Shown one piece after another: positions 12,392 through 44,821 of a stretch of DNA of 64,000 nt. Position 1 is the first letter of the stretch, and each line of letters begins with the position of its first letter. The stretch comes from Candidatus Eiseniibacteriota bacterium (lineage in GTDB: Bacteria > Eisenbacteria > RBG-16-71-46 > CAZAMP01). The position numbers and the translations under genes are program-made. The stretch lies in contig OZ245046.1 of the NCBI GenBank assembly GCA_965224245.1, forward strand, positions 4,960,001 through 5,024,000, read 5' to 3'. Under the pieces are notes generated by a model, which was not told the origin of the DNA, did not search any database, and worked only from the letters and a program-made list of their open reading frames with translations.

Positions 12392-12797
12392 GGCGTGCGA
12401 CCTCTCCCGATGGCGTCCGGATTCACTCGACGCGCGCGTACGTGACGATTGAGACCGCAATGTACCAGCATGCGTCGGGCCCCTCAATTCGCGTCGCGGT
12501 GGTCGGCACGGCGCGGGCGATGATCCTCTAACACAAAGTTATTCATGCATTTGAAGCGACGACCGTCGCGGGCGGGTCGGCGTCCTGGAGCCATCGGTTC
12601 GATGCGTTCGGGCACCGAACGACGGCTGTCTCCGGTTTCCCCACGGGCCCGGGTTACACATCGAGCCCCGAGTGCGCCTCTCCCCATGTCGGCAGGTACG
12701 CCGTAGCTCGTCTCCCCCGCGACCTCCTCCTCGCGGGCCGACGGAGCCGGCGCGCCCGTAACCCGTTGGTCCGCAGTAATCGATGAGGATGAGAACG

Positions 12798-15653: not shown

Positions 15654-15901
15654 CGTGATGGCGGGCCGTCGGCGCCCAGGTCGTCGGACCTTGCGCGGCG
15701 ACGGCGGCCGGCCCCGAACGGCCCTCATCACGTCCTGCCCCGGGACGCCGATCCGGTCACTGGAGCCGGGTCGGCGTCTCTTCTTCTCCACCGGCGCATC
15801 TCAGCCGTCCGGCGGCCGCCGGATCCATCCCGGGCCCTCTTCGAGCCGATGAATCCACCATCTCGATTGGACACCATTCCCGCTCGAACAGGAGATCGAA
15901 G

Positions 15902-17248: not shown

Positions 17249-17416
17249 TCCGGCAAGACCGCCTGGAGCGCCGCGCACGGTCGGCGCTACCGGGTCGTCC
17301 CGGTGCTGGGAGACGGGTCGGGCTCATCCTGGATCGACGAATCGGCCGGATGGACGCCCGTCGGGCACTCGAATGCGGTACGATTCCGGTTCGGGGCCAG
17401 CACCGGGAGGTACAGG

Positions 17417-28613: not shown

Positions 28614-31600
28614 ATGGAGAATGCAGAACACGCGGTCCTGACGAGACCGCCGGGATCGACGTCTTCGCCACCTGCTCACTCCGACTCCTCACGTTGCGAC
28701 CGCTCTCCCTCCCCGACGACCCGACACCTCTCGACGATACGCCAGCTCACAGCGATGCCGCATCGTCTCGCCGGACCGGCGCTCCTCGCGCTGTGCCTGG
28801 TGGCGACGCCGGCCGCGGCGGAGTCCCCGTACGGGCTCTTCAAGGACGGCCGGAAGGTCCTGGACATCTCCGACTTCGCGACCACCCGCGATGCCGCGCG
28901 AACGCTCGAGCAGGCGTTGCCGACGTTCACGCGGGGTCTCGAGCTCTATCGCGACGTGCTCGGGCGTGATCACGTTCCGTCCGGAGAGGCCACACGCTAC
29001 GGAGCGCTGGCCGTCGCGGCCCGTGACCTGGTGGCGACACTCGAGAGGCCCGGATCGCTGAGCGAGCCCGGCGCCGCGGATCGCGTGGCGAGGCTGGCCG
29101 AGCTGGCCGCGCCGGTGCGTGAGGCGAACGACGCCTACCTGAACCGGCTCGCCGCGATCGGACGGAACATCGCCGACGCGGGGTTCCCGACCGAGAAGCA
29201 AGCTCGCCACGCGGCGCTGGTTCGCGCGCACGGCGAGGCGGCGGCCTCGCTGATCGATCGCCTGGACTCGCTGTCCCGCGCGCATGCCACCGGCTCGCCG
29301 GTGGCGGCCCCGATCGCGCGTCTGGCGGACTGGTTCGCCGAGAACCCCCTGGAGCCCGAACGGGCGGAGACGTCCGACGTGCCCCGGGGTCCGACGTTGA
29401 TGGAGATCGTTCCCGCGCCGGTCGTGCCGCTGGATCCCAACCGCCGCGTGACGAGCGCGTATCCGATCGCGCCGGGCACCGAACGGGGCACGCCGTCGGA
29501 CCTGGACGAGACCATCGACGTCCAGTTCACCCCGGACATCGATGCGCTGGCCGCGTCGCTGGGCAGCTCGCCGGCGCGGATGTACGAGTACGTCCGCAAC
29601 AACGTCGAGTTCGAGGCCTACCTCGGATCGCGGAAGGGTGCCCAGCAGACGCTGGATCACGGGCGGGGTAACGACGTGGACATCGCCTCGCTCCTGATCG
29701 CGCTGTATCGCACGTCGGGCATCCCGGCGCGCTACGCCGAGGGACGCGTTCGCGTCCCGATCGATCGCTACACGAACTGGCTGGGCGTCGACGACAAGAC
29801 CCAGGCGGGAAGCCTGCTGGCCACCGCCGGACTGCAAGCGACACTCGAGATCTTCGGATCGGACACCGTGTCGGTGTCGCTGCAGCGCGTCTGGGTCGAG
29901 GCCTACGTGCCGTTCGACAACTACCGAGGGGCACCGAGCGACACGGCCGGCGCCCGGTGGATCCCGCTGGACCCCGCGTTCAAGCAATACGACGTGACGC
30001 CGGGGATCAACTTCGCCGCCGAGCAGGGCGTCGACGGCGACACGTTCGTGGACGACTACATCTCGACGTTCCGGGTCGAGCCGCCGATCGAGAAGCTCGA
30101 GGCCGATCTCCTCGCGGCGCTGCCCGGCGCACATCCGGGTCTCGGCATCGACGACATCGTGGACCGGCGATCGGTTCGCGCCGAAGAAGACGGCATCCTG
30201 CCGGGGACGTTGCCCTACGAGCTGGTCACCAAGGACGGTGTCTTCTCCGAGGTCGTGACCGACGATCGGTACCACGTTCGTTTTCATCTGCACGACGGCG
30301 GCGGCATGGATCTCGACTACACCACGTCGACGCCCGAGCTGGCCGGCAAGCAGGTGACGATCTCGTACATCGGTGCCACAACGGCCGACCAGGACGTCAT
30401 CGATGCGGCCGGGAGCTTCTTCAACATCGCGACACCCTACCTCGTGGACGTGGTGCCGCAGCTGAAGATCGACGGCTGCGTGGTGGCCACCGCCAGCGGC
30501 TTCGTGACGATGGGCTACTCGCACGGCTCGGACATGCACTTCACGCCGCCGGTCGGCGCGTCGAACCAGGTTCCCGCGGTCTTCAACACGATCGCGGCCG
30601 GCAACTCGCAGGGCATCGGCATCGACACGCAGGACGCGCTGCCCGCGCTCTTCGACGTCCCGTCCACGACGTGTGACGAGGACTACCTGACCCAGGAGCT
30701 GCATCAGACGGCGTTGACGTACCTGAACAACGTGGATCGGGCCGAGGATCGACTGGCCGAGCTGCTTCACGTGGTGCACATCAACGACGTCTCCGAGGCC
30801 ATCGTCGAGAGCTCGGTGCGCATCCTGTTCTCCAGCGGTCTCCCGATCACGTTCGACTGGACCGGGATGATCGTCGACGCGGACCGGAAGATCGTCGGCT
30901 CGTTCGCCGTGGACGGACAGGCCACGCCGTACGACTTCCTGCGCATCGGAGGCGCCGACGGGTCGGTGCAGGAGAATCGCGTCTTCGAGACGCGCTACGA
31001 CGAGGAGGCGATCTCGGCCATCAAGATCCTCGGTCTGGCCGCGGACTCGCTGATCACGATCTGCGACATCACGACCTCGATCGGCGTGGACTGCCCCGAC
31101 ATCGATCAGTCGGCGTCGGTGATCGCGGCCATCAACGCCGCGCTCGGCATCGGCCATCGCGTGATCATTCCCGAGCGCGACTTCACGTACTACAACTGGT
31201 CGGGCACGGGATACATCGATCTCGATCCCACGTCGGGAGCGGCGGGATACATCATCGCCGGCGGCCAGAGCGGCGGCGCCACGGTGCAGGACTGGTCCGC
31301 GGAGCTGGCGGGCATGCTGGCGTCGGGAACGATCTGCATCGAGCCCTCGGGCACGATCACGGTGGCCCCGGCCGCCGACGTCGGCGACGACAAGTATTGC
31401 CGTGACAACGACGCCAACTGGGAGTTCACCGTCCCCACGATCCAGGGTTGGGGCGTGGACGAGGACGACAACTGCAAGGCCACGAACACGCTCACCAACG
31501 AGACGTTCACGGTCACGAACTACACGATCAAGGAGCTGGCCGACAGCGACACGTTCGGGCCGGGCACGTACACGTTCCGCATCGGATCGCCGATCGACCC

Positions 31601-32300
31601 CTACGGCTGCGGCTGCACCATCATCGAGAAGGAAGTGACGATCTACGCCGCGGTCGTGAAGACGCTGAACCCGAGCGGCGAGTTCGAGCTCGGATCCGAC
31701 CTCGCGATCGACTACGAGGTCGTCCCGTCGGACTTCAGCTTCGACAGCGCCAAGCTCCAGGTGAAGAACGCCAACGACGACCTGGTCTACGAGATGACCG
31801 GCCTCGACGGCAGCGGGGGAGCCCACTCCACGATGTGGGAGAAGGGCAAGTGGAACCAGGGTTCCACGCCGTACCCGTACGCGAACCCCAAGAACGGGGA
31901 GTACGAGATCATCGTGGTCGGAACCGTGGGCGGGATGGACTGCGAGTCGGAGCCGGAGACGGTCGAGACGAAGCTCGTGCTGGAGGCCGACATCACGGAT
32001 CCCGAGCCGGGGGCGATGATCGATCGCGCCGGGCTCGAGGACATGATCGACGCGCTCAAGATCGTGCTGAGTCTGGGTGGCTCGGAGACGATCTTCCAGG
32101 GCACGAGCCAGATCACCGAGACGCCCACCGACGACTACGAGACCAAGATCAAGGTCGAGGACCCCGGGCTCAACAGCCTCGACGACGGAGACTACGAGGT
32201 CATCTTCCGAGATCTCCGCGACGAGCTCGGCAACTTCGGCGACGAGGATCCCGGCACCGCCGGCATCCAGGAGATCAAATTCGATCTGAGGTTGAAATGA
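28614..32300 (+). CDS. Large secreted transglutaminase-like domain protein (catalytic residues substituted)
   Basis: YEYVRNNVEFEAYLGSRKGA...GNDVDIASLLIALYRTSGIPARY, RVWVEAY, WIPLDP; start is 28614 or the downstream MPHRLAG. Confidence 0.85.
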   Translation: MENAEHAVLTRPPGSTSSPPAHSDSSRCDRSPSPTTRHLSTIRQLTAMPHRLAGPALLALCLVATPAAAESPYGLFKDGRKVLDISDFATTRDAARTLEQALPTFTRGLELYRDVLGRDHVPSGEATRYGALAVAARDLVATLERPGSLSEPGAADRVARLAELAAPVREANDAYLNRLAAIGRNIADAGFPTEKQARHAALVRAHGEAAASLIDRLDSLSRAHATGSPVAAPIARLADWFAENPLEPERAETSDVPRGPTLMEIVPAPVVPLDPNRRVTSAYPIAPGTERGTPSDLDETIDVQFTPDIDALAASLGSSPARMYEYVRNNVEFEAYLGSRKGAQQTLDHGRGNDVDIASLLIALYRTSGIPARYAEGRVRVPIDRYTNWLGVDDKTQAGSLLATAGLQATLEIFGSDTVSVSLQRVWVEAYVPFDNYRGAPSDTAGARWIPLDPAFKQYDVTPGINFAAEQGVDGDTFVDDYISTFRVEPPIEKLEADLLAALPGAHPGLGIDDIVDRRSVRAEEDGILPGTLPYELVTKDGVFSEVVTDDRYHVRFHLHDGGGMDLDYTTSTPELAGKQVTISYIGATTADQDVIDAAGSFFNIATPYLVDVVPQLKIDGCVVATASGFVTMGYSHGSDMHFTPPVGASNQVPAVFNTIAAGNSQGIGIDTQDALPALFDVPSTTCDEDYLTQELHQTALTYLNNVDRAEDRLAELLHVVHINDVSEAIVESSVRILFSSGLPITFDWTGMIVDADRKIVGSFAVDGQATPYDFLRIGGADGSVQENRVFETRYDEEAISAIKILGLAADSLITICDITTSIGVDCPDIDQSASVIAAINAALGIGHRVIIPERDFTYYNWSGTGYIDLDPTSGAAGYIIAGGQSGGATVQDWSAELAGMLASGTICIEPSGTITVAPAADVGDDKYCRDNDANWEFTVPTIQGWGVDEDDNCKATNTLTNETFTVTNYTIKELADSDTFGPGTYTFRIGSPIDPYGCGCTIIEKEVTIYAAVVKTLNPSGEFELGSDLAIDYEVVPSDFSFDSAKLQVKNANDDLVYEMTGLDGSGGAHSTMWEKGKWNQGSTPYPYANPKNGEYEIIVVGTVGGMDCESEPETVETKLVLEADITDPEPGAMIDRAGLEDMIDALKIVLSLGGSETIFQGTSQITETPTDDYETKIKVEDPGLNSLDDGDYEVIFRDLRDELGNFGDEDPGTAGIQEIKFDLRLK

Positions 32301-34927
32301 TGACGCGACGACGAGTACCGACGCGCGCCTCCGAGCGCGCATCCACGGGAAGACGCGCGCACTGGCTGACGGCGGCGCTCACCGTCGTCGCGGCCGTCAC
32401 GATCGGTGCGGTGACGCCGGGCGCGGGGCGCGCGGAGACCGAGGTCCGCTACACGAACATGATCACCGCGTACGAGGAGGGAGACCTCGTCCGAGCGCGT
32501 GAGCTGGCCGGAGAGTGGCTCGCCACATTCACCGGCGAGTACGCCGAATCGGAGCAGGACGCTGATCGCGAGGGCGCGCTCGTCCGGCTCATGAGCACGG
32601 TGCGCTCGATCCACGAGGCGGAGCTCGCGCTGGATCCGGCCGAGCGGCTCGCGATCGACGCGGACGTCATGACGGCGACGCGGGCGGCGATGACACTGAC
32701 GCAGTCGGCGCTCGCGACCCTCGACGACGAGAAGACGTCCCAGAAGGCGTGGCTCCAGCGCGAGCTCGGCTGGACGGCGGTTTCGGTGATCCGGGCGCAA
32801 AACGGCCTGGCGCCCCGGGCGGCGCTCGACGAGATCGCGGGCTCGTTCGCCGACGAGATGCAGCTCGTCGGCTTCGACGGGGTGGACGCCGCGCTGGCGC
32901 CGCCGCCGGCGGTCGACGAGGGGCGGATCCTGGAGCTGGATGGTCCGGAGCGGGCCGCACTGCGCGCCGTCCTCGAGGACTACGTGCGCGGCCTCTACAT
33001 GGGACGAGCCGAGCTCGTGACCGCGACGACGTCGGCCGGATCCCCCGAAGTGGTGCGGCTGATCACCACCGTCCAGGCGGAGCAGCGGGCCAGGGGCATT
33101 CGCTCCGTCCAGTCGGTGGACCTCGCTCCGCCGGACGTGTCCCCGCTCCTCTTGCGCCGCACGGCGACCGATCGCTCGATCTACGTCGTGGGGCTACGGG
33201 ACGTCGCCGTGCGCGTCGAGCGCACCGACGGCGGTACCGAGAGCCTCGAGTGGGTCGACATGGTCCGCGTTCGGCGCGACGAGGCCGGCCGGTGGCAGGT
33301 CGTGCTCCCGGACGTGGACGCGATCGGATCGCCGGACGACACGGGCGCCTCCGGAGGGCTCCACCGTCGGCTGGCGTACACGGTAACCGGCCAGGTGCGA
33401 ACCCCGCTCACGGGGGGCTCGGCCACCGCGAACGATCAGCCCGTCCAGTACATCCGCGTGATCGTCATGGACGAGGAGGCGGGAGCCGACGAGGAACTCG
33501 CGCGCGGCTACACGACGTCGGCGGGATCGTTCTCGATCGCGGCCGAGGACACCTCCGAGGCGGCGGATCTCTACGTCGACATCGAGTACGTCGGTGACGC
33601 CGTGGACGGCCAGGAGGTCGAGGTGCGCGCCAGCGACGGAAACGCCGACCCGGACAAGGACACGATGGTCAACGGATCGGTCCTGACCGATCAGCCGGCG
33701 GGGACGGTCGCGCTCGACACCCTGCGCACGAGCACGCATCGCTCGACGGTCGTCTCGCACGGGACCCGCGCGTTCAAGTACCTCGACGGGCAGTACTCCG
33801 GGTACACGCTGGGGGAGAACCCGCGCTACGAGGCCACGTCGGGCACGGGCGGCAGCTACGTCACGTCGGACGGCGGCTACCTGCGCATCAGCCGGGACGA
33901 CTGGCGCGACCCGGGATCGGGGAACGCCCAGTACTCGGACATCCATCACGAGACCTGGCACTGGCTCTCGTACCGCACGTACGGCAGCCGGTGGCCGGAC
34001 TACGGCTGCTCGTGCAACCCCCACTACGCGAACAAGGAATGCTGTGAAGGCTTCGCGATGCAGGAGGGGAGCGCGCAGTACTTCGGCAACATCTCGGCGA
34101 TCGCGATGTTCGGCGGAGACGGCAAGACGAACCTCCCGGGCGTCGACACGTGGCGCGGCGAGGACGACACCGGCGACGACAACAGCGGCGAGATCGTCGA
34201 GGGCACGTTCACCCGGGGGCTGCGCAACCACGGCGAGCACCCCGGTGTGCTGGAGGCCTTCTGCTCGAAAGCACCCGACAACTGGGAGGAGCTCTACCAG
34301 GCGTACGGCGACGTGAAGGGCAAGACCTCGTCGGACATGAGCGATCTCCTGGACGAGATGGCGCTCAACGGCATCGTCTACACGCGGGGCAAGATCAACA
34401 AGTTTCTCCCCGAGGACGATCCCCCGGACATGGGACCGCCGGCGGACGGCAACGTGAAGGAGATCCGGGACGTCGTCTTCGTTCGCGGCGAGATCGAGCC
34501 CGAGATCGAAGCGCTCGCGAAGGCCGATCTCAACATCGCTCCGAACGCGAACGTCGTGGATCCCGACCAGAAGGACATCGGGTACAAGACGGCGGCCAGC
34601 GGGACCGGTGAGGACAACCCGCTTCCATCTCTCACGTTCGTGGGTGCGGTCGGATGGGCGTCGATGCTGATGTGGGACACGACCACGGCCGCCGACGGCG
34701 AGTACGACGTCGTCGTCAAGACGCGCATGAAGGACTACCAGTGGGAGGACACGCTTGAGCCGGACTTCACCGGTGACGCGACGGCCACGGTGAACACGAA
34801 CGAGAAGTGGCTCAAGACCCTCCAGACGTGGTTCAACCAGGACGACACGCCCACCGACGACAAAGAGGGCAAGGTGATCATCGACAACGCCGGCCCCGAG
34901 GTCGAGAACTTCAAACCAGAGCCGTGA
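32297..34927 (+). CDS. Secreted putative zinc metallopeptidase (HExxH)
   Basis: ATGA overlap; signal peptide; DIHHETWHW...AMQEGSAQYF; C-terminal Ig-like WDTTTAADGEY...IDNAGP. Confidence 0.75.
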   Translation: MMTRRRVPTRASERASTGRRAHWLTAALTVVAAVTIGAVTPGAGRAETEVRYTNMITAYEEGDLVRARELAGEWLATFTGEYAESEQDADREGALVRLMSTVRSIHEAELALDPAERLAIDADVMTATRAAMTLTQSALATLDDEKTSQKAWLQRELGWTAVSVIRAQNGLAPRAALDEIAGSFADEMQLVGFDGVDAALAPPPAVDEGRILELDGPERAALRAVLEDYVRGLYMGRAELVTATTSAGSPEVVRLITTVQAEQRARGIRSVQSVDLAPPDVSPLLLRRTATDRSIYVVGLRDVAVRVERTDGGTESLEWVDMVRVRRDEAGRWQVVLPDVDAIGSPDDTGASGGLHRRLAYTVTGQVRTPLTGGSATANDQPVQYIRVIVMDEEAGADEELARGYTTSAGSFSIAAEDTSEAADLYVDIEYVGDAVDGQEVEVRASDGNADPDKDTMVNGSVLTDQPAGTVALDTLRTSTHRSTVVSHGTRAFKYLDGQYSGYTLGENPRYEATSGTGGSYVTSDGGYLRISRDDWRDPGSGNAQYSDIHHETWHWLSYRTYGSRWPDYGCSCNPHYANKECCEGFAMQEGSAQYFGNISAIAMFGGDGKTNLPGVDTWRGEDDTGDDNSGEIVEGTFTRGLRNHGEHPGVLEAFCSKAPDNWEELYQAYGDVKGKTSSDMSDLLDEMALNGIVYTRGKINKFLPEDDPPDMGPPADGNVKEIRDVVFVRGEIEPEIEALAKADLNIAPNANVVDPDQKDIGYKTAASGTGEDNPLPSLTFVGAVGWASMLMWDTTTAADGEYDVVVKTRMKDYQWEDTLEPDFTGDATATVNTNEKWLKTLQTWFNQDDTPTDDKEGKVIIDNAGPEVENFKPEP

Positions 34928-34955
34928 GAACGGCCGAGCGGAGACGAACGAAACC

Positions 34956-37900
34956 ATGACGACTCGACGACACACGACGCGAGGACGCTGGTTGACGTCG
35001 GTACTTGCCGGCCTCTCGACCGGTGTCCTGATCGGCGCCGGCTTCGCGCCCGGCGCGCTGGCCACGAGCCTCGAGGACGGCGTCGCCTGGCTGGAAGCCA
35101 ATCAGGACGCCTCGGGCCTCTGGAACGCAACCGGTGAAACACCGTTCCGCGACACGGCGTTCGTGACCGAGATTCTCGCGCGCTTCGGCACGCTGCCCGC
35201 CGTCCTGGCCGCCGGCGAGGCCGTGCTCGACGGCACGGAGGTCCAGTCGGTGGACTTCCGGGCCCGTCGTGTGCTGGCGCTCGCCTCGGGGAGCCTCCTC
35301 GACGCGGACGAGGTCACCGCGCTGGCCGCCGACCAGAACGAGGACGGCGGCTGGGGCTACGCGCCCGGCTACGCCAGCAACGCGCTCGACACGGGGCTCG
35401 CGCTCCGCGCCCTGAAGACCGCGGGCTACACGGGCGCCGCTCTGTACATCGCGGGCGCCGGCTTCCTCACCGGGACCCAGAACGGCGACGGTGGCTGGGG
35501 ACTCGTCGACGCCGATGCCAGCGACGTCTTCGTGACGTCGCACGCCGTGATCGCGCTGGCCGCGGTCGCCTCCGAGGTCTCGGTGGGCACCGAGATCACC
35601 GCGGGCGTGGACTGGCTCCAGACGCAGGACAACGGCGACGGTGGCTTCGGGCCCGCCGGCGTGAGCACGCCGTACCACACGGGACTGGCCATGGCGGCGG
35701 TGTTCCGCGACGAGCCGGCGGCCACCGAGCTCTCGGCGGGCAAGACGTACCTCGAGTCCATTCAGAACCCCAGCGGGAGCTGGACGGACGATGCCTACCA
35801 CACGGCGGCGGCCATCTTCGGCCTCAGTCAGGTGGGACCGGACCTCGAGATCACCTCGCCCGACATCGCACTCTCGGATCCGACCCCCATCGACGGCGAT
35901 CTCGTGACCGTCACCGTCACCGTGCACAACGCCGGTGTCGTGGACGCCGCCGACGTCACGGTGCAGCTCTTCGACGGCGATCCGTCGTCCGGCGGAACGC
36001 AGATCGGAACCGACGTGGTGGTGCCCCTGCTGGCCGCGGGCACGAGCACCGGCGTGGACTTCGACTGGGATACCACCGACCTCGGGGGGGACCACTTCCT
36101 CTACGCGCGGGTCGATCCCGCCGACGCGGTGTTCGAGCCGGACGAGCTCAACAACGAGGCCAACACGTTCGTGCACGTGTTCCTGCCCCCGAACCTCACG
36201 TTCGACCCCGACGGGATCACGTTCGACCCGGAGGCGCCGGAGGTGGGCGAGACCGTCATCGTCTCGATCACCGTGCGCAACGACGGCGAGACCGAGGCGG
36301 TCGACGCCTCGCTCCAGCTGTATCGGCTCCCGCTGGAGCAGGACGGCGACCTGGTCGCCCTGCTCGGCTCGCCTTACATCATCCCGTCGATCATTCCGGG
36401 GTCGCAGTTCACGCTGAACGTGAACATGGGCACCTACTTCAACCAGGAGCGCGACTACGATCTGATGGCGTGCGCCGACGAGGAGGACGCGATCCGCGAG
36501 GTCTCCGAGTTCGACAACTGCCACCAGGCCACGCTGTGGGTCGGTCCTCAGCCGTTCCCGGTGTCGATGGCGACCGGGCTCAACTTCCTGAGCCTGCCCG
36601 CCACCCCGGACGAGCCTCTTTTCGCCAACGAGGCCATCGCCGGCCTCCCGGGCGGTGACGAGGTGTCCGGCTGGAGCCGAGCGGATCAGCGCTGGCTGAG
36701 CGCGGTGCACGCCGGCGGTGGGGTCTACGTGGGCGAGGACTTCCCGATCCCGCTGCGCGACGGGTTCTTCGCACGCACGACGAGCCCGGGCACGTATCCG
36801 TTCGTCGGGCGCGCCCTCGGGTCGCACGACTGCACGTCGCTCGAGGTCGGGTTGAATGCGGTCTCGGTGCCGAATGCGGACGCGTGCTACACCGCATACA
36901 CGCTGATCGACGCCGTGACCGGAGCCGACGCGGCCTATCGGTGGGACGCCACGCTCCAGATGTGGGAGACCACGATCAAGACCGCGCCCGACACGTTCGT
37001 CGGACCGGACTTCGCGATCACCCCGGGGCACGCGTACTTCGTGCGAACGATCACCGCGGCCGACTTCTGCAGCGAGACGTGCACCGGTCCGATGCTGCCG
37101 GATCTCCGGGTGACGCCGAGCGACATCTTCTTCGACACGAACCCGGTGGGTGTGGGACAGCCCGTCGGCATCTACGTCAACATCGACAACATCGGCGAGG
37201 TGGACGTCACCACGCCGCGACTGGACATCTGGGCCGGCGACCCGGACGGGGGCGGCTCCCAGCTCCTGTCCGCGCCGCTCCCGGTGGATGCGCCGGCCGG
37301 CGGCTCGACGGGCTTCTGGGGCGGGACGTTCTCGTTCGGATCGCCCGGCACCATCGACATCTACGGCATCGCGGACTTTCTGGACGAGGTCCTGGAGTCG
37401 GACGAGACCAACAACCAGGCGTCGAGCCCGCTCATCGTGACCACGGCCAGCCGCCCCGAGGGTCCGGAGTCGTCCTCTGCCATCGCGAAGGCGGGCCCGG
37501 GCGCACGCCCGAGCTCGTCCGAGCCGGTGCTCACCGATCCCGTCCATACCGTGGTCGCTCCCGACGGCACGGACGTCACGTCTCGGGTGACATCCGATGC
37601 TCCGGCGAGCATCCAGGACGTCCTGGTGACGAACGTGACGAGCTCGTCGGCCACGATCACTTGGATCACCGACCGCGCCACGGTGGGATGCGTCCGGGCA
37701 GGCCGTTCGTCGCCGGCGCAGACGTTCTGCGAGCGAACCATCGCGGGTACGACGCACGCCGTCGTGGTGGAGGGACTTCGAGCCGACACCGAGCACGTCT
37801 TTGCGATCGTCGACGGTGACGCCGGGGTCGAGACCTCGGTCGACTTCGTGTTCCGGACCACACCGGTCGGTGCGGGCACGCCCGTGGCCCTCCACGGACG

Positions 37901-38528
37901 CCTGGTCGAGAGGGGCGCGGAAGACGGGTCGGACGGGGACGTGTCCGCCGGCGACGTCGGCGTCGCGCACGCGATCGTGAGCGCGGCGCTGCTGCGCGAC
38001 GGCGGTGGCTCCATTCCGCTGTCGACCCGGACCGCCTCCGACGGCTCGTGGTCGATGAACCTCGGGAACCTCAAGGACCCGGCCACCGGCGCGCCGCTCG
38101 GCGCACGAGTCGGTGATGCGGTGATCCTCAGGGCCCAGGCCGGACCGGAGCGGGTCGGTACCCAGCGGGTGATGATCGGTTCGCTCGACGTGATCGACGC
38201 CGGAACGCTGCGACTCGGTGCCGAGGACGTGCCGGAGACGACGCCCCCGGCGGCGTACTTCCTGGCCGCGAACCGGCCCAACCCCTTCACGTCGCAGACC
38301 ACGTTCACGTTCGGGCTGCCCGAGTCCGAGCTCGTGACGCTCGAGGTGTTCGACGTCCTGGGCCGCCGCATCGTGGAGCTCCAGCACGGCGAGCTTCCGG
38401 CGGCCACGCACGCGATCACCTGGGACGGCCGCGACCGATCGGGGCGGATCGTCCCCGCGGGGGCGTATTTCTATCGGCTGCGGGCCGGGTCCTTCACGCA
38501 GGTGCGAAAGCTCCTGATCGTGCGGTGA
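34956..38528 (+). CDS. Secreted prenyltransferase/squalene-cyclase (QW) repeat protein with three CARDB domains, FN3-like module and FlgD-Ig tail
   Basis: QDASGLW, QNEDGGWG, QNGDGGWG, QDNGDGGFG, QNPSGSW; PDL...E-x-DE-x-NN CARDB signatures; NRPNPF...WDGRDRSG. Confidence 0.85.
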   Translation: MTTRRHTTRGRWLTSVLAGLSTGVLIGAGFAPGALATSLEDGVAWLEANQDASGLWNATGETPFRDTAFVTEILARFGTLPAVLAAGEAVLDGTEVQSVDFRARRVLALASGSLLDADEVTALAADQNEDGGWGYAPGYASNALDTGLALRALKTAGYTGAALYIAGAGFLTGTQNGDGGWGLVDADASDVFVTSHAVIALAAVASEVSVGTEITAGVDWLQTQDNGDGGFGPAGVSTPYHTGLAMAAVFRDEPAATELSAGKTYLESIQNPSGSWTDDAYHTAAAIFGLSQVGPDLEITSPDIALSDPTPIDGDLVTVTVTVHNAGVVDAADVTVQLFDGDPSSGGTQIGTDVVVPLLAAGTSTGVDFDWDTTDLGGDHFLYARVDPADAVFEPDELNNEANTFVHVFLPPNLTFDPDGITFDPEAPEVGETVIVSITVRNDGETEAVDASLQLYRLPLEQDGDLVALLGSPYIIPSIIPGSQFTLNVNMGTYFNQERDYDLMACADEEDAIREVSEFDNCHQATLWVGPQPFPVSMATGLNFLSLPATPDEPLFANEAIAGLPGGDEVSGWSRADQRWLSAVHAGGGVYVGEDFPIPLRDGFFARTTSPGTYPFVGRALGSHDCTSLEVGLNAVSVPNADACYTAYTLIDAVTGADAAYRWDATLQMWETTIKTAPDTFVGPDFAITPGHAYFVRTITAADFCSETCTGPMLPDLRVTPSDIFFDTNPVGVGQPVGIYVNIDNIGEVDVTTPRLDIWAGDPDGGGSQLLSAPLPVDAPAGGSTGFWGGTFSFGSPGTIDIYGIADFLDEVLESDETNNQASSPLIVTTASRPEGPESSSAIAKAGPGARPSSSEPVLTDPVHTVVAPDGTDVTSRVTSDAPASIQDVLVTNVTSSSATITWITDRATVGCVRAGRSSPAQTFCERTIAGTTHAVVVEGLRADTEHVFAIVDGDAGVETSVDFVFRTTPVGAGTPVALHGRLVERGAEDGSDGDVSAGDVGVAHAIVSAALLRDGGGSIPLSTRTASDGSWSMNLGNLKDPATGAPLGARVGDAVILRAQAGPERVGTQRVMIGSLDVIDAGTLRLGAEDVPETTPPAAYFLAANRPNPFTSQTTFTFGLPESELVTLEVFDVLGRRIVELQHGELPAATHAITWDGRDRSGRIVPAGAYFYRLRAGSFTQVRKLLIVR

Positions 38529-38547
38529 GCGAATGGAGGGATCAACC

Positions 38548-39534
38548 ATGACACGGATCGAGATCGGCGCCACGCGGGGCGCGCTGCTCGCGGTCGTCGC
38601 GTCGGTGGTTCCGGCGCTCGTCGCGTCGGCGCAGACGATCGAGGACGTCGCCGCGTCGAATCTCTCTAGCACGGCGGCCGCCGTGACCTGGACGACCGAC
38701 GTTCCGACCGACGGCACCGTCAACTACGGCACCACCACGTCCCTGGGAGGCTCGTCGTCGGATCCCCGGCCCGACGACGACGTACATGCGGTCTCCCTGT
38801 CCGGGCTGGCCGAGGACACGCTGTACTACTACGAGGTCGTGTCGAACGGCGTGACCGACGACAACGGCGGTGCGTTCTACACGTTCCGGACCAGCGTGGT
38901 CGGGAGCGGCGTTCCCTACGTCGTCTACGGCGCGACGACGATGATGGACGGCACCACGCCGGCCGTGGACGTCATCGTGATGGTGACCGTGACCGGCGTG
39001 AGCGGGACGTCCTCGGCGCTGACGACCCTGTCCGACGCCGGAGGCAACTGGGCGCTGAACCTGGGAAACCTCAAAGAGACCTCGGACGGTCAGGCGTATG
39101 CCTACGCGGCCGGAGACGCGCTGGACGTCGTGGCCAGCGGAGCGGCCGACGGAGACGCCATCGCGGCGGAGACGATCAGCGGCTCGAGTCCGCAGCTGGT
39201 ACCCCCGCTCGTTCTGGGGGGCGCCCTGGCCACACCGGACGCCGGGGGGCGTCCGAGCGTGGCTCTGACCGGCGCACCGAACCCGTTTCGCGCGTCGGTC
39301 ACGCTGAGCGTCTCGAGCCGCGACCCCCTGGCGGAAGCCGAGCTCGAGGTTCTCGACGTCCGGGGGCGGCGCGTCCGCGTCCAGCGCCTCGGCTCGGTGG
39401 CGGTCGGGATCAACCACTTCGTGTGGGACGGTCGGGACGGCTCGGGAGTCGACGTTCCCGCCGGTGCGTACTTCTACCGGATCGTCCACCGCGACGGACG
39501 CACGCCAGCGGCTCGCATCACGCTGACGCGGTAG
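38548..39534 (+). CDS. Secreted FN3/purple-acid-phosphatase-N-like protein with FlgD-Ig tail
   Basis: ATG at 38548 after GGAGG; VTWTTD...HAVSLSGLAEDTLYYYEV; APNPF...WDGRDGSG. Confidence 0.85.
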   Translation: MTRIEIGATRGALLAVVASVVPALVASAQTIEDVAASNLSSTAAAVTWTTDVPTDGTVNYGTTTSLGGSSSDPRPDDDVHAVSLSGLAEDTLYYYEVVSNGVTDDNGGAFYTFRTSVVGSGVPYVVYGATTMMDGTTPAVDVIVMVTVTGVSGTSSALTTLSDAGGNWALNLGNLKETSDGQAYAYAAGDALDVVASGAADGDAIAAETISGSSPQLVPPLVLGGALATPDAGGRPSVALTGAPNPFRASVTLSVSSRDPLAEAELEVLDVRGRRVRVQRLGSVAVGINHFVWDGRDGSGVDVPAGAYFYRIVHRDGRTPAARITLTR

Positions 39535-39745
39535 CCGGTACAGACCCGACGCAGGCGGGCGCCCGGACCGGGGGCGCTCGCCGGTCCGGCCGGGGCTCGG
39601 ATCCCCGTGGCTCTCCGCCGCCATTCCCGCGTGGCAAGACGGCCCGAATCACCGGACTCCCGCCCCCCGCGGCCGTCCCGTCATCGAGGAAAACGATGGC
39701 CGACGCCTCTAATTCCCGCTGCCGAACGGGACGATAACTAGCGTC

Positions 39746-40345
39746 ATGAGCTCCCACCTCTCACGGCATGCATCCGGCCGTCGGACGAGCCGACTCCGGC
39801 CGGCGCGGCTTCTCGGGCTCGGTGCGTTGCTCGCGCTCCTTGCGCTGAGCGCCGGCCCGACGCCAGCCGTCGTGGCCGGGTCCGGCGAGCCGACGTCGGC
39901 GGAGCGTCGAACCGACTACATCCTGAACTGTCTCCGGTTCGTCCACTGGCCCGTCGAGCCCGACCACGCGATCGACGTCGTCGTGCTCGACGACGTCGAT
40001 CTCTCGGTGGCGCTTCGAAGAGCCGCGGAGACCCGGCAGGTGCGCGGCCACGACGTGACGGTGAGCACCGACCCGCGACTCGTCGAGCGTGGGCTCGCAG
40101 ACGTGGTGTTCGCGGCGGATCGATGCCCGCGAGCCGACGAGATCATCCGCGCCGCCACGTCGGGGACGCGCGCCGTCCTGACCATCGGAGACGGCGATGC
40201 CTTCACGAAGGCCGGCGGCATGCTCGCCCTCGTCCAGCGAGACGACGGCCTCGCCGTTCGTGTGAACATGACGGCCGTCATGCAGTCGGAGATCGAGATC
40301 TGCTCGCGGCTCCTCGTGGTCGCCGAGCTCGTGGAGAGCGAATGA
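39746..40345 (+). CDS. yfiR: YfiR family periplasmic protein
   Basis: [22 protein letters not shown]...GGML, VN...SRLL. Confidence 0.8.
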
Positions 40346-42726
40346 AGTTCCTCGCCACGCGCATGGCGGCGATCCCGTTCCGCCGAAAGATCCATGTTCT
40401 CGTCACCGCGACGAGCTGCGGCGCCCTCGCGCTGGCCTGCGCCAGCATGGCGATCCGCGACTTCATCAGCTACAAGACGGCGCTCGTGAACGAGCTGGAC
40501 AGCATCACGGCGATCGTCAGCCTCAACAGCACCGCCCCGGTGCTGTTCGACGATGCGCAGTCGGGAACCGAGGTACTGGACGCCTTGTCCGCCCATCCGT
40601 CGGTCATCTACGCGCGGCTCGTCCGCAGCGGGATGCGTCCCCTGGCCGAGTTCCGGCGTCACGACGCCGACACCTTCATCCCGCCGGCGCCCGGGAGACC
40701 GGGTCACGAGTTCACACCAAACCTGCTGATCATGCGTCGCGCGGTCATCTTCGACGGCGAGCAGATCGGATCTCTCATCCTGGTCTCGGACGTCTCGCCG
40801 CTCTACTACCGGATGCGCGGCGCCGTGCTCACGGCGCTCGTGGTGCTGGTCAGCGCGGTGGGGCTCTCGTTCATCCTCTCCACGCGCGCGCACTACATGG
40901 TCACCCGTCCGCTGATCGCGCTCGCGGACGCGGCCCGCCGGGTGTCGGCCAGTCAGGACTACGACGTGCGCGTGGAGCGAGCGGCCGACGACGAGATCGG
41001 CGCGCTGACCGACGCCTTCAACGACATGCTCGCGCGGATCAAGTCCACGAACGACGAGCTGACCCGTGCGCACGAGGAGCTCGAGCAGCGCGTCGCCGAG
41101 CGCACCAAGCAGCTCCGGGTGGCCAAGGAGTCGGCTCTCGAGAGCTCTCGCCTGAAGTCGGAGTTCCTGGCCAACATGAGTCACGAGATTCGCACGCCGA
41201 TGAACGGTGTGCTCGGCATGGCCAAGCTCGCGCTGGAGTCCGATCCGTCGCCCGAGCAGCGGGAGTACCTCAACTCGATCGTGGCATCGGGTCGATCCCT
41301 CCTGACGCTCTTGAACGACATCCTCGACTTCTCGAAGATCGAAGCGGGGAAGCTGGTCCTGAACACGGTCGCGTTCGACGTTCGGGACGTCATTCGCGAC
41401 GCGCTCAAGACCGTGGCGCCGATCGCGGCCCCACGACCACTCGACCTGCTGGGCGACATCTCCGCGGAGGTTCCGTCCACGGTGGAAGGAGATCCTGATC
41501 GGCTCCGTCAGATCGTGCTGAACCTCGTCGCCAACGCCACGAAGTTCACGAACGAGGGCACGGTCCTGGTGTCCGTCCGCTGTCTCTCCGAGCCATCCGC
41601 GTCGGTCGAGCTGGAGATCACGGTCAGCGACACCGGCATCGGAATCGCGCGAGAGAAGCTGGAGCACATCTTCGAATCCTTCACGCAAGCCGATGGATCG
41701 ATCACGCGCCGCTACGGTGGAACGGGCCTGGGGCTCGCCATCGCGTCGGGTCTCGTGACCGCGATGGGCGGCCGGATCCAGGTGGAGAGCGAGCAGGGGG
41801 TGGGGACCACGTTCTGTCTGACGATCCGGCTCGGCTGCGATCGGGCCGCCGTGAGCCCACCGAGCCGGCTGTCGCAACCCATCGACGTGCTCGTGGTGGA
41901 CGAGAGCGCGCCGCGCCGGCGGGCGATCGCGACCGCCGTCCGGAGATGGGGAGGCCGGCCCCTGTCGGTGGCGACGGCCGAGCGCGCACTCGGCGCCCTC
42001 GTCCACGGTCTCGAGTCCGGCCGGCCGTTCGACGTGTGCATCGTCAACGACAGGCTCCCGGACCAGAGCGCCCTCGGACTGGCCGAGCTCGTGCGCGTCG
42101 ACTCCGACTTCGACGATCTCGAGATGCTCTTCCTGCTCGGCTACGATAACCTGAATCTCGACGGACGCTACGCGAAGCTCTCGGTGAGCGGCTGGCTCAC
42201 CAAGCCGCTGCTCACGCACGAGCTGTTCGATCTCCTCGCGCCCATCGCGGCGCGACCGAGGCCATCGTCGCCGTCACGTCGACCGTGTCGGGTGCTGGTC
42301 GTGAGTGACCCCGCCAGGCTCCCGGTCATGCAACGCGCGTTCGAGCAACGAGGCCACTCCGTCCTGACGGCGAGCGACATCATGGACGTCGAAGGAATCC
42401 TCGCAGAGACGCAGGTGGACGCCGCGATCGTGGCCGCCGAGCCAGGCGGGGCGGTCGGCGGCCGGGACGTCCTCCGCGTGATCCGCGATGCAGACGACGC
42501 GTGCGGCGAGTGGACGCCGCTGATCCTCCTCGACGGCGCTCGTCCGGAAACCCCGCGCACGAGCACCGACGCGGCGGGCCTCCCGGGCGGCGACGCGCCG
42601 GCGACGGCGGACCGGACTCTCGACCCCGCGACACCGCCGACCCGACTCGTCGAGGCCGTCGTCGCGCTCGTCTCGGACCGAGCGAACGACGGCGATGGCA
42701 CGCGCGGGCCGCGCGCCGCCGCGTGA
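40342..42726 (+). CDS. Hybrid sensor histidine kinase (CHASE8-like, HAMP, HisKA, HATPase, two atypical REC domains)
   Basis: [48 protein letters not shown] overlap with yfiR. Confidence 0.92.
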
Positions 42727-42733
42727 GTGACCG

Positions 42734-44821
42734 ATGACGTGGACACTGGGTAACTACACGCTTCTCGAGCGCCTCGGCTCCGGCGGTATGAGCGAGGTGT
42801 GGCTCGGACATCCGACCGGTCACCCGGATCTGGCGGTGGCGATCAAGACCGCGGTGATCGACCCGGCCACCCGCCGGTGGTTCGAGAACGAGGTGCACAC
42901 GCTGGCCGAGATCGATCACCCGGGCATCGTGCGCGTGCTCGACGCGAACGAGGCGGAGGGCCGGATCTACGTCGTGATGGAGTACGTGGACGGGCCCACG
43001 TTGCGGCGCATCCTCAGCCACCGGCGCCGGGGTCGTCGAGTAGAGGAGACGGCGCGCTGGGTCGAGCTTGATCGCGCCGCGTTTCGGCGGTGGGTCGTGT
43101 CCAAGGCGGCCGAGGTCGCCGACGCGCTGGCCGCGGTCCACGCCACCGGGCTCGCGCACCTCGACGTCAAGCCGGACAACATCCTCGTGGACGAGAGCGA
43201 TCGCGTCCGACTCATCGACTTCAACCTGTCGCTACGCGAGGATTCGCCGTCGGTCCATCACGTGGGCACACCGGCCTACATGAGTCCCGAGCAGGCGGCG
43301 CGCGAGCAGGCACCGACCCTGGACGCGCGGGCCGACGTCTTCTCGCTCGGGGTCGTGCTCTACGAGGCGCTCACCGGCGAGCGTCCCTTCGGACGCGGGA
43401 GCTCGGACGAGGTTCTCGAGCGTGTTCGGACCCTGAACCCGCCGGCCCCGAGCTCGCTGGTTCCCGACGTCCCGCCGGATCTCGACATCGTCGTGCGAAA
43501 GGCGATCCAGAAGCGCCGCGACGACCGCTACCAGACCGCGCACGAGCTCGCCGCCGATCTCCGGCGCGTGCTTCGCGGCGAGCCGGTGCGTGCGACCGCC
43601 CCGCCGGAGCGGTCCGCGGTGCGGGAGTGGGCGGCGCAAAATCGGGCCTGGCTGCGTCGGGGCGTCCTCGTGGCGGCGGCCGTGGCGGCGGTGCTCGGAG
43701 CTCGATCCGCGCGCGAGGCCTACGTCGCGTGGCGCTCGGTGCCGCTCGTCGCGGTCAGGGCGTTCGACACCGGGGGTACCGAGATCGAAGACGCGGGCGT
43801 GTACGCATGTCGACTCGATGATTTCGGACGCGAGCAGGGACCCGTGGAACGGCTGGGCGCGACGCCCCTGGCGGGCACCCGCGTGGATGCGGATCGCGTG
43901 CGCCTGTTGATACTGGACGGCGACGGTCGTGCGGCCGAGCTCGTTCGCGAGCTCGAGCGAAGCGGACGCACGACGTACGCCCGCGCCGTGCTGCGCGAGC
44001 CACCGACGCAGGCGATGGTGCGCATGCCGCCCACACGCGCGCGGTTGATGGTCAGCGCCGGGGAGTCCCCGGGACTGGATCCGTGGGCGGAGGCCGAGGT
44101 CGACGTCGAGGCGTTCTGGATCGACCGCTACGAGGTGACGAACGCCGAGTTCCGAACGTTCCTGGCCGACTCGAGCTGGTTCGCGATCACGCGGCACGGG
44201 CGGCCCGGGCCCCATCCGCTGTGGCCGGACTCTCTCACCCGCGCCTGGGCGATACGTCCCGTGCTCGCCACGTATGCGCAGGCCGCGCTGTACGCCGAGT
44301 GGGCCGGCAAGCGGCTGCCCACGGCGATCGAGTGGCAACGCGCGGCGCGGGGGGCGGAGGGTCGCCGCTATCCATGGGGAGACACCCCCGACGATCCTCC
44401 GGGATCTCGGGCCGTCTACGGACGCCCCAACGTCCGCGACATCGCGGGCGCGGCCGCCGCGGAGGGGACTGCCTCGGACCGGCCGCACACTCGCGACATC
44501 GATCGTGCGAACTACCTGATGCACGTCGCCCCGGCTCGATCGTTCGCCGACGGCGCCACCCCCGAGGGACTCCATCACATGCTCGGCAACCTCGAGGAAT
44601 GGACCGTGAGCATCCCGAGCGAGTGGTCCGACTCCGGTGTCGTCACGTTTCCCGACGAGCGGATCGTCCTGGGTGGCTCGTGGCCGATGGCGCGCCACGC
44701 GGCACGTCTGGACGTGCTGTCACCCGAGCTGATCGACAACGTGACACGCAACACGATCGGGTTCCGCTGCGTCAGAAGCGACTACGGATCCGGGGTGTCG
44801 TTGATCGCCTGGACGCGATAG
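42734..44821 (+). CDS. Ser/Thr protein kinase fused to FGE-sulfatase (SUMF1-like) domain
   Basis: LGSGGMSEV, VAIK, HLDVKPDN, DFN, GTPAYMSPE; TM helix; IDRYEVTN, KRLPTAIEW, YPWG, MLGNLEEW, GFRCV. Confidence 0.92.
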   Translation: MTWTLGNYTLLERLGSGGMSEVWLGHPTGHPDLAVAIKTAVIDPATRRWFENEVHTLAEIDHPGIVRVLDANEAEGRIYVVMEYVDGPTLRRILSHRRRGRRVEETARWVELDRAAFRRWVVSKAAEVADALAAVHATGLAHLDVKPDNILVDESDRVRLIDFNLSLREDSPSVHHVGTPAYMSPEQAAREQAPTLDARADVFSLGVVLYEALTGERPFGRGSSDEVLERVRTLNPPAPSSLVPDVPPDLDIVVRKAIQKRRDDRYQTAHELAADLRRVLRGEPVRATAPPERSAVREWAAQNRAWLRRGVLVAAAVAAVLGARSAREAYVAWRSVPLVAVRAFDTGGTEIEDAGVYACRLDDFGREQGPVERLGATPLAGTRVDADRVRLLILDGDGRAAELVRELERSGRTTYARAVLREPPTQAMVRMPPTRARLMVSAGESPGLDPWAEAEVDVEAFWIDRYEVTNAEFRTFLADSSWFAITRHGRPGPHPLWPDSLTRAWAIRPVLATYAQAALYAEWAGKRLPTAIEWQRAARGAEGRRYPWGDTPDDPPGSRAVYGRPNVRDIAGAAAAEGTASDRPHTRDIDRANYLMHVAPARSFADGATPEGLHHMLGNLEEWTVSIPSEWSDSGVVTFPDERIVLGGSWPMARHAARLDVLSPELIDNVTRNTIGFRCVRSDYGSGVSLIAWTR

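Follow-up and report, generated by a model that had tools for sequence, protein, structure and literature searches.

Genes and proteins at the locus

This study concerns four adjacent genes, here termed A to D, in a 64,000-nucleotide stretch of Candidatus Eiseniibacteriota bacterium (assembly GCA_965224245.1, contig OZ245046.1, positions 4,960,001 to 5,024,000 of the forward strand), hereafter called the window, and in particular the pair formed by A and C, which is the conserved unit of the locus, and not the four-gene set. The window is GC-rich (0.65-0.72). Between 28.4 and 39.6 kb it carries four long, closely packed open reading frames (ORFs) on the + strand, which all point in the same direction and have a GC content at third codon positions of 0.88-0.90:

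28755..32300 (alternative start 28614), + strand: gene A, 1181-residue exported Cys-less transglutaminase-fold protein
32297..34927, + strand: gene B, exported, HExxH-bearing protein
34956..38528, + strand: gene C, 1190-residue protein with toroid, CARDB, FN3 and C-terminal sorting domains
38548..39534, + strand: gene D, 328 residues, FN3-like domain, beta-sandwich and FlgD_ig tail

A and B overlap by 4 bp (ATGA), and gaps of 28 and 19 bp separate B from C and C from D, the latter being only 4 bp if an alternative ATG of D at 38533 is used. An initial annotation, made from the sequence alone, had described four tightly packed secreted genes with this overlap and these gaps, and this was confirmed, with the start of A moved from 28614 to 28755. 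The true start of A is probably 28755 on sequence grounds, because the public gene call (P0005, 1181 residues) begins there, with its start Met directly 5' of the hydrophobic signal segment (MPHRLAGPALLALCLVATPAAA), and because the 47 residues encoded from 28614 have no counterpart in 28 aligned A homologues. The mature parts of the aligned homologues open at a conserved G-L-[FY]-K-D-G. Residue numbers of A follow P0005 unless called fragment numbering. All four proteins are acidic (pI 4.18-4.48, Asp plus Glu 10-17%) and start with hydrophobic segments that were judged by eye to be signal peptides, with long Arg-rich n-regions in B and C. A promoter and terminator scan gave nothing exceeding shuffled expectation. 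The AT skew reaches 0.11-0.17 across 30001-36000 (3' half of A, B and the start of C), which is probably due to acidic, A-rich codon use.

Protein A matches the Pfam family Transglut_core (PF01841) with 58 bits against a cut-off of 23, as do all 29 A-family members scanned. Its AlphaFold2 model, built from a 29-sequence alignment, has a mean pLDDT (predicted local distance difference test) of 80.7. From the N-terminus, it consists of a helical bundle and the transglutaminase core, then of an extended conserved middle region, and lastly of three or four beta-sandwiches:

28932..29354, + strand: helical bundle, residues ~60-200 of A (AlphaFold2 secondary structure)
29442..30269, + strand: transglutaminase-like core, residues 230-505 (Pfam, VIA-align)
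29913..29957, + strand: beta-hairpin loop (NYRG...G), residues 387-401, predicted toroid-docking element
30180..30224, + strand: segment 476-490 (EEDGILPGTLPY), second predicted contact, conserved
30192..31334, + strand: central domain, residues 480-860, best-conserved part of the family, no Pfam model
31332..32297, + strand: beta-sandwich domains of immunoglobulin (Ig), FN3 or macroglobulin (MG) type, residues ~860-1181, variable part of the family

In structural comparisons with VIA-align, residues 230-505 align with 3isr (Z 11.7, root-mean-square deviation (rmsd) 3.7, 150 aligned) and with PeiW (Z 9.9), and in a sequence search of the PDB with the A family profile 3isr was also the best match, at E 0.012 only. 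The helical bundle aligns with other helical bundles at Z 9-10.5, values that the tool rates as common for helical folds, and the sandwich 964-1075 aligns with MG/FN3-type domains at Z 9-10. The catalytic triad is not kept. In the window's A, D307 occupies the Cys position and R378 the His position, and D406 is the retained Asp; in the 29-sequence alignment the family shows G-N-D-x-D where the transglutaminase core has G-x-C-x-D. In a set of 31 members that reaches down to ~25% identity, and which was used for all catalytic and interface counts, 26 have Asp at the nucleophile position, three Ala, one Pro and one a gap, and none has Cys. At the His position, 17 members, among them the window's A, have Arg and the other 14 His; the catalytic Asp is retained in 30. 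As judged from these alignments, the designation "pseudo-transglutaminase" is apt for the whole A family, because the nucleophile position is never Cys in the 31 members. D309, R319, Y327, W380 and W402 are invariant in this domain, and N306, S312 and D406 are present in 30 of the 31.

In a search of 5.8 billion proteins with A, 7997 candidates were scored, and 39 of these proved to be relatives at E <= 0.001. Their lengths are 898-1699 residues, and they share 27-61% identity with A (40-61% except the weakest) over most of the query. Some members carry extra C-terminal domains: among 29, Pfam reports TGL (1), Amidase_3 (1), Reprolysin_5 (1), DUF6973 (1) and DUF7689 (2), plus Big_2 (2). No T9SS (type IX secretion system) tail domain was found in A or, at E <= 1e-4, in any of these 29 members.

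The central domain, residues 480-860, is 24-67% identical across 35 sequences, and folded alone (381 residues) it was predicted with pLDDT 86.1 and pTM 0.84. No Pfam or NCBIfam model covers it, Foldseek gave no PDB match at E <= 0.001, and an Atlas search reached a score of 0.76, which counts as nothing. VIA-align against 48161 chains returned a single chain at Z >= 5 (an OsmC-like protein, Z 5.2, 114 aligned), whereas Z 7-8 is usual even for models that lack a clear match; this comparison barely covers the model residues outside 130-362, so that the novelty of the first beta subdomain carries less weight. As modelled, A 480-860 is a domain of no known fold. A profile of it retrieved 5188 clusters at E <= 0.001 from 1.84 billion representatives (50% identity clusters), 3792 of them at E <= 1e-10 and 2027 at E <= 1e-30. 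Polar residues that are invariant across the 35 sequences, down to 24% identity, are Y177, D229, S258, E261, S275 and Y353 (fragment numbering), the last five being D708, S737, E740, S754 and Y832 of P0005.

Protein C opens with an alpha/alpha toroid, followed by beta-sandwiches and a sorting tail:

35031..35870, + strand: alpha/alpha toroid, residues 26-305 of C (Pfam, pattern), predicted receptor for the A hairpin
35838..36164, + strand: first CARDB domain, residues 295-403 (Pfam), with more CARDB-like sandwiches after it
37626..37859, + strand: FN3-like domain (Pur_ac_phosph_N), residues 891-968, 22.8 bits, sub-threshold
38277..38519, + strand: FlgD_ig/T9SS type A sorting domain, residues 1108-1188 (Pfam, NCBIfam)

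The toroid matches SQHop_cyclase_C with 31.6 bits (cut-off 26.1) and, below threshold, SQHop_cyclase_N and Prenyltrans. Four Q..DGGW-type repeats were recognized by pattern, and the PDB relatives of the toroid are squalene-cyclase-domain proteins. Residues 1-310 contain no D.DD motif and C contains no C.EQ motif (the CxEQ thioester motif); in an alignment of 27 toroids, none of the columns that are invariant or almost so is a Cys. The window's C does not reach the Pfam thioester-domain (TED) family TED_complement (PF07678) at E <= 1e-4. The CARDB match scores 99.8 bits and that to Pur_ac_phosph_N stays below its cut-off of 30, while the tail passes both FlgD_ig (33.1 bits, cut-off 27) and TIGR04183, the model for T9SS type A sorting domains (33.1 bits against 23).

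Linkage and predicted docking of A and C

Scanning one genome per species gave 40 loci, of which 38 were used and two (L028 and L041; short matches, no A ORF) were dropped. In 26 of the 38 loci a toroid gene is found next to A, in the same orientation and no more than 4 kb away. The distance is at most 2.5 kb in 23 loci, with the toroid gene downstream of A in 15 of these and upstream in eight. Records with the A-toroid pair are labelled Ignavibacteriales, Zixibacteria, Acidobacteriota, Verrucomicrobiota, Planctomycetota, Chloroflexota (Anaerolineae), Desulfobacterales, Binatia, Nitrospirae, Gammaproteobacteria, Thermincola and others. The 38 loci come from more than 10 phyla, and transglutaminase-like and toroid genes, for which the initial annotation had proposed a neighbourhood analysis, stand side by side in many phyla. 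Of the 12 loci that lack a toroid gene, six are truncated next to A by a contig end, and in four of the five genomes concerned another contig carries, at or close to its end, a toroid gene of strong homology (E 1e-70 to 4e-89). In the host genome (6.94 Mb) A and the toroid profile are each single-copy and only 2.6 kb apart. The sole other A match there is a weak one to the transglutaminase core (C1:1233211-1233444, E 1.7e-6, 37% over 76 residues) in a 378-residue frame. The patchy distribution of the module suggests that it may have spread horizontally.

The claim of the initial annotation that the four genes form a unit did not hold at this level, since the core shared by 26 of the 38 loci is A and C, B is an accessory of a subclade (see below) and D-like genes follow C in only two other loci (L004 and L005). 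In the toroid partner itself, the toroid is the only common part: SQHop_cyclase_C was found in 27 of 28 toroid neighbours and TED_complement in seven (best E 8.8e-07). Their variable remainder includes CARDB (11), FlgD_ig (5), Por_Secre_tail (3), PKD, F5/8 type C, FG-GAP and TSP3 domains, and Glucodextran_B and F5_F8_type_C modules are present on some partners. A short, variable and mostly exported ORF often lies between A and the toroid gene. Among 30 such ORFs, 20 have no Pfam family, the others match HEAT, SnoaL or PQQ-propeller models weakly, and 23 have a hydrophobic N-terminus. The short ORFs directly after A are highly variable, with few BLAST links between them. One of them, a small exported ORF at L039:12061-12501, has a sub-threshold match to Ntox16 (E 2.4e-4, 21.7 bits, cut-off 25).

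A complex was predicted from A residues 240-860, with their own alignment, and the C toroid, with an alignment of 27 neighbours. Three runs gave ipSAE values of 0.87, 0.87 and 0.90, and the best of three controls gave 0.00. The mark set for the tool is passed by 116 of 157 solved complexes and by two of 215 mismatched pairs, counts that apply only roughly here, where author-built alignments were used. The runs share at least 94% of their contacts, with a partner pLDDT of at least 88, and recall of a known structure by the model is unlikely because no similar solved complex was found by sequence. In the model, A contributes residues 272, 335, 338, 387-401 and 476-490, and the toroid six periodic loop groups (35-40, 71-76, 109-117, 158-167, 207-216 and 254-256 in fragment numbering; plus 25 for C numbering), which lie just past each GGWG repeat and make up one loop-rich face. 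Hairpin 387-401 and segment 476-490 of A are thus predicted to dock on the loop face of the C toroid. The contact loops of A belong to its best-conserved parts among the 31 members (R391 in 30, G392 in 31, P483 in 27 and P487 in 26).

Four Chloroflexota loci with full flanks and no toroid gene (L031, L034, L035 and L036, labelled Ardenticatenaceae, Anaerolineae or Thermoflexales) bear on the role of the hairpin. In their A proteins 68 residues separate the two Trp that flank the hairpin, where this stretch measures 15-23 residues in the window and in the 25 toroid-linked loci that cover the region (L022 is cut by its contig and does not). All four inserts match Dockerin_1 over profile positions 3 to 52-54 of 57, with 14-19 bits (cut-off 22.9; E 0.0016-0.057), and match EF-hand loops as well. 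The gene directly upstream of A in these loci encodes a protein of ~1750-1790 residues, and in three of the four an N-terminal Cohesin domain was detected over the cut-off (27.9, 29.4 and 34.6 bits against 24.1). Such a replacement of the toroid by a cohesin neighbour, together with that of the hairpin by a dockerin-like insert, is as expected if the hairpin is the partner-docking site of the family. Two further loci vary at this position. L040 has no partner gene, and its hairpin is deleted down to 10 residues; L033 holds a second A copy that keeps the hairpin, and the other copy of that genome (L032) has a toroid gene. The L033 copy (L033:436-7730, Thermincola record) lies beside BrxL and DUF6079 genes, as in BREX-type defence, and has no toroid neighbour. 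At L031, a GH44 glycoside hydrolase gene (L031:1787-3526) lies upstream of the cohesin-bearing giant protein, which fits a cellulosome-like setting at that locus.

Genes B and D, the sorting tail and neighbouring genes

Gene B has no Pfam or NCBIfam family and appears as a fusion of two genes:

32297..33346, + strand: N-terminal half of B (BN), residues 1-350, exported, helical and alpha/beta, no family
33347..34927, + strand: C-terminal half of B (BC), transthyretin-like beta-sandwich followed by a putative zincin domain
33947..33961, + strand: HETWH zinc-binding motif, residues 551-555, the sole HExxH in B

An invariant Glu follows 35 residues past the second His of the motif. The BC family comprises 22 relatives of 501-616 residues with 41-61% identity, in which H201, E202, H205, E240 and two Cys are invariant and in 16 of which the N-terminal transthyretin-like sandwich is weakly detected. 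The HExxH...E motif is the sole basis for calling B a putative gluzincin, with the invariant Glu as presumed zinc ligand. An Atlas search linked BC to Mycolysin_M with a score of 0.88, which is below the trust level and came from 14% of one cluster's members.

The order A, BN, BC recurs in L003, L006 and the metagenome loci L045, L047 and L049, so that with the window BN and BC follow A in all six loci that can be judged (L046 and L048 are not long enough for this). BN and BC are separate genes in different frames in the five other loci and are fused in the window only, where the fused B (32297-34927) has lost the signal peptide of BC. When the other small genes that lie between A and C were searched for relatives of BN by phmmer, an iterated HMM and BLAST all-against-all, only those in L003 and L006 were retrieved, which gives no support to a shared ancestry of these in-between genes. 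As far as the gene content of the loci indicates, B is an accessory of one subclade and not part of the conserved core.

D scores 42.7 bits with FlgD_ig (cut-off 27), 29.9 with Pur_ac_phosph_N and 19.4 with TIGR04183 (below its cut-off of 23), and it is paralogous to the C-terminal part of C (residues 885-1175; E 1e-29, 33% identical over 300 residues). In Pfam and NCBIfam scans A and B have no tail domain, and C and D are the only tailed genes of the four, as had been stated at the outset. The initial domain calls likewise stood, namely a pseudo-transglutaminase (Cys in none of 31), an HExxH...E motif in B, a QW-type toroid without DxDD followed by CARDB in C, and FN3 with FlgD in D. The host genome encodes the T9SS sortase PorU (NF033707, 469.6 bits, cut-off 420; C1:2571843-2575325) and at least 150 FlgD_ig ORFs (of 451 first-look candidates 150 were scored, all of them over the cut-off). 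The predicted T9SS cargo set of this genome is thus unusually large. T9SS type B C-terminal domains of Cytophaga hutchinsonii are sometimes labelled FlgD_ig superfamily, as stated in a passage of the review PMC11611037.

Directly downstream of D lies a hybrid histidine kinase with a CHASE8 sensor (39742-42726, + strand), followed by a Ser/Thr protein kinase fused to an FGE-sulfatase domain (42734-44821, + strand). BLAST-cluster relatives of the kinase gene also occur near A in L007 and L027. A second exported cluster is located 10 kb upstream (12780-19378, + strand) and encodes a 957-residue protein with DUF6345 and a FlgD_ig tail, a 529-residue protein of no family and a 709-residue protein with a FlgD_ig tail.

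Interpretation and relation to known systems

Gene linkage, loss of catalytic residues, the predicted interface and the hairpin swap, all in silico, are the grounds on which we consider the core of this locus to be, with somewhat better than even probability, an exported two-protein module in which disarmed enzyme folds dock rather than catalyse; physical binding, a surface location, protease activity and a biological role are inferred. In this module, A combines the helical bundle, the transglutaminase fold with its Asp-Arg-Asp triad, the conserved domain of ~380 residues and the beta-sandwiches, and C starts with its terpene-cyclase- or TED-like toroid without DxDD or CxEQ. The hairpin of A would serve as plug and the toroid face as socket. 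C would probably be exported and anchored via the T9SS, with A held at the surface through C. D would likewise be T9SS cargo in the window, and the complex would probably be displayed at, or released from, the cell surface. B would probably contribute a zinc protease. The output activity would most likely reside in the domain of no known fold in A and in variable enzyme add-ons (the B zincin here; Reprolysin_5, Amidase_3 and TGL in relatives). The proposal of the initial annotation that enzyme folds act as scaffolds is therefore upheld in silico by the predicted hairpin-toroid interface and the dockerin-like swap in Chloroflexota. Its further suggestions, that the tail-less proteins are carried by the tailed ones (here A by C through the T9SS) and that the assembly serves in toxin delivery or as a lattice, are conjectural. 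That the system is undescribed was also borne out, since key parts have no Pfam, NCBIfam or PDB relative and no description of the A-C gene pair was found in the Creative Commons-licensed part of PMC or in bioRxiv.

Several observations weigh against this interpretation. The A-C binding is a matter of model confidence, not of measurement. The Dockerin_1 matches of the Chloroflexota inserts do not reach the Pfam cut-off, and the L034 neighbour had no reported Cohesin match. No member of the BC family (0 of 22) matches a peptidase Pfam model at E <= 5, and a PDB sequence search with B gave no match. Among 40 sampled relatives of the host genome (one of the same family, 39 of the same class) none has the A family, so that there is no close-kin synteny to draw on. 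The strong conservation of the A core (40-60% identity across phyla) is more in keeping with an enzyme or a precise binder than with a passive scaffold. As to surface display, a tail family is present in eight of the 28 toroid neighbours and neither tail family in 20. The T9SS is not known to occur in some of the phyla under which records with the A-C pair are labelled. T9SS surface display can therefore not be the general mechanism of the module, and the T9SS tail is a lineage-specific add-on to the toroid protein. No precedent is known for a tail-less periplasmic protein that crosses the outer membrane together with T9SS cargo, and A could stay in the periplasm or exit by another route.

A bolder extension of the docking module, which we advance only tentatively, is that hairpin and toroid represent an unrecognized, widespread docking pair, functionally interchangeable with cohesin and dockerin, from which extracellular complexes of enzymes or adhesins would be built in more than 10 phyla. 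In T9SS lineages the tail-less A, perhaps with B, would then reach the surface by riding on, or being captured by, its tailed partner, and the 380-residue domain would be a catalytic or ligand-binding payload. If true, this would be the first hitch-hiker or adaptor route for the T9SS.

Other explanations have to be weighed against docking. The four genes might simply encode co-regulated, independent exoproteins (adhesins or enzymes), the interface being a modelling artefact. Such an arrangement would suit a genome with at least 150 FlgD_ig-tailed ORFs and another tailed cluster 10 kb upstream; CARDB, FN3 and Ig modules are generic, and B and D are kept with the pair in few loci only. However, the presence of a toroid gene next to A in 26 of 38 loci from many phyla, the single-copy state of both genes in the host genome, the contrast of 0.87 with 0.00 for the controls and the appearance of the dockerin-like insert exactly where the neighbour becomes a cohesin protein make this explanation rather unlikely. 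We give a similarly small chance to a polymorphic toxin or antagonism system, in which A would be a secreted carrier, its variable C-terminus or neighbouring genes the source of hydrolytic effectors such as a protease or an amidase, the small ORF after A an immunity protein or chaperone, and C the delivery or anchoring part. The seven extra C-terminal domain matches in Pfam among 29 A-family members point in this direction, as do the short, variable genes directly after A (no Pfam family in 20 of 30, hydrophobic N-terminus in 23), the sub-threshold Ntox16 match in L039 and the B zincin, which occupies the slot of the small ORF. The C-terminus of the window's A, however, consists of beta-sandwiches only, Pfam and NCBIfam at the thresholds used detect no known toxin-delivery or pre-toxin domain in A, most family members have no effector-like domain, and selection is strongest on the conserved core and not on the tip.

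Potentially, A and C could still be enzymes of non-canonical chemistry that work one after the other on a single extracellular substrate (for example a glycan, a lipid or a cell-wall peptide), with the invariant Asp of the former transglutaminase site or the toroid cavity as acting parts. The invariant or nearly invariant residues of the transglutaminase domain, the polar invariants of the central domain and the carbohydrate-type modules (F5_F8_type_C, Glucodextran_B) on toroid partners would agree with this. The nucleophile position, however, varies (Ala in three and Pro in one of 31), and loops of A fill the predicted 'active' face of the toroid, so that we regard this possibility as improbable. 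Least probable of all would be a protease trap or envelope protection system resembling alpha-2-macroglobulin (A2M) and split over two proteins, with a TED-like toroid in C and sandwich arrays in A and C. It is suggested by the TED_complement matches in seven of 28 toroid neighbours (best E 8.8e-07), by the Z of 9-10 between sandwich 964-1075 and MG domains, and by complement C5, C3 and C4, E. coli A2M and CD109 being the top Foldseek matches of whole A. These whole-chain matches, however, have a TM of ~0.1 and an rmsd above 27 A, with titin, DSCAM and antibodies scoring alike, and were taken as a generic multi-Ig likeness. The toroid has neither CxEQ nor a conserved Cys, the window's C falls short of TED_complement at E <= 1e-4, and, at the thresholds applied, neither A nor C of the window matched an A2M-type domain in Pfam or NCBIfam.

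If A-C docking is real, it would represent a new way of assembling extracellular complexes, with disarmed enzyme folds as plug and socket, and a hairpin-toroid pair that was apparently exchanged for cohesin and dockerin in one lineage. The study also brings to light a large family without annotation, in which 5188 clusters (50% identity) match the central domain of A at E <= 0.001, a domain with no Pfam model and no structural relative; it provides a functional handle on many "prenyltransferase/squalene oxidase repeat" exoproteins of environmental bacteria, and raises the testable question of whether proteins without a T9SS sorting domain can reach the surface via a tailed partner.

In comparison with known systems, C and D resemble T9SS cargo, as C passes TIGR04183 and FlgD_ig, D passes FlgD_ig and PorU is encoded in the genome; unlike such cargo, A and B are tail-less, and so are most toroid neighbours (20 of 28). 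A transglutaminase-like gene together with an FN3 protein and a nearby Ser/Thr kinase gene is reminiscent of MoxR-DUF58-transglutaminase clusters, among them the bifidobacterial PFNA cluster (PMC8430577). Unlike in those clusters, Pfam scans that covered the genes between 12780 and 49930 of the window show no MoxR-type AAA ATPase or DUF58, and A is an exported, Cys-less protein, not a membrane transglutaminase. With the transglutaminase-like superfamily (PF01841; 3isr, PeiW) A 230-505 shares the fold and the Asp of the triad. The A family differs from these enzymes by the missing catalytic Cys, by the change from His to Arg in 17 of 31 members, and by the placement of the domain in an exported protein of 1200-2000 residues, beside a domain of no known fold and with a hairpin as predicted docking element. 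Similarly, the N-terminus of C is an alpha/alpha toroid with QW-type repeats, like class II terpene cyclases, prenyltransferase beta subunits and TED. Unlike these, it is a single, exported toroid of ~270 residues, fused to CARDB/FN3 and a T9SS tail, without DxDD, CxEQ or a conserved Cys, and its loop face is predicted to bind a protein hairpin. The module also resembles the cohesin-dockerin assemblies of cellulosome type, in that a dedicated docking pair links a protein with enzyme domains to a multi-module surface protein from the adjacent gene. It differs from cellulosomes in that the window locus has no glycoside hydrolases and the dockerin matches of the variant are sub-threshold. In one Chloroflexota clade, docking appears to rely on cohesin and on a dockerin-like insert that stands exactly where the hairpin would be, whereas the window and 25 other loci would use hairpin and toroid in place of a known docking pair.

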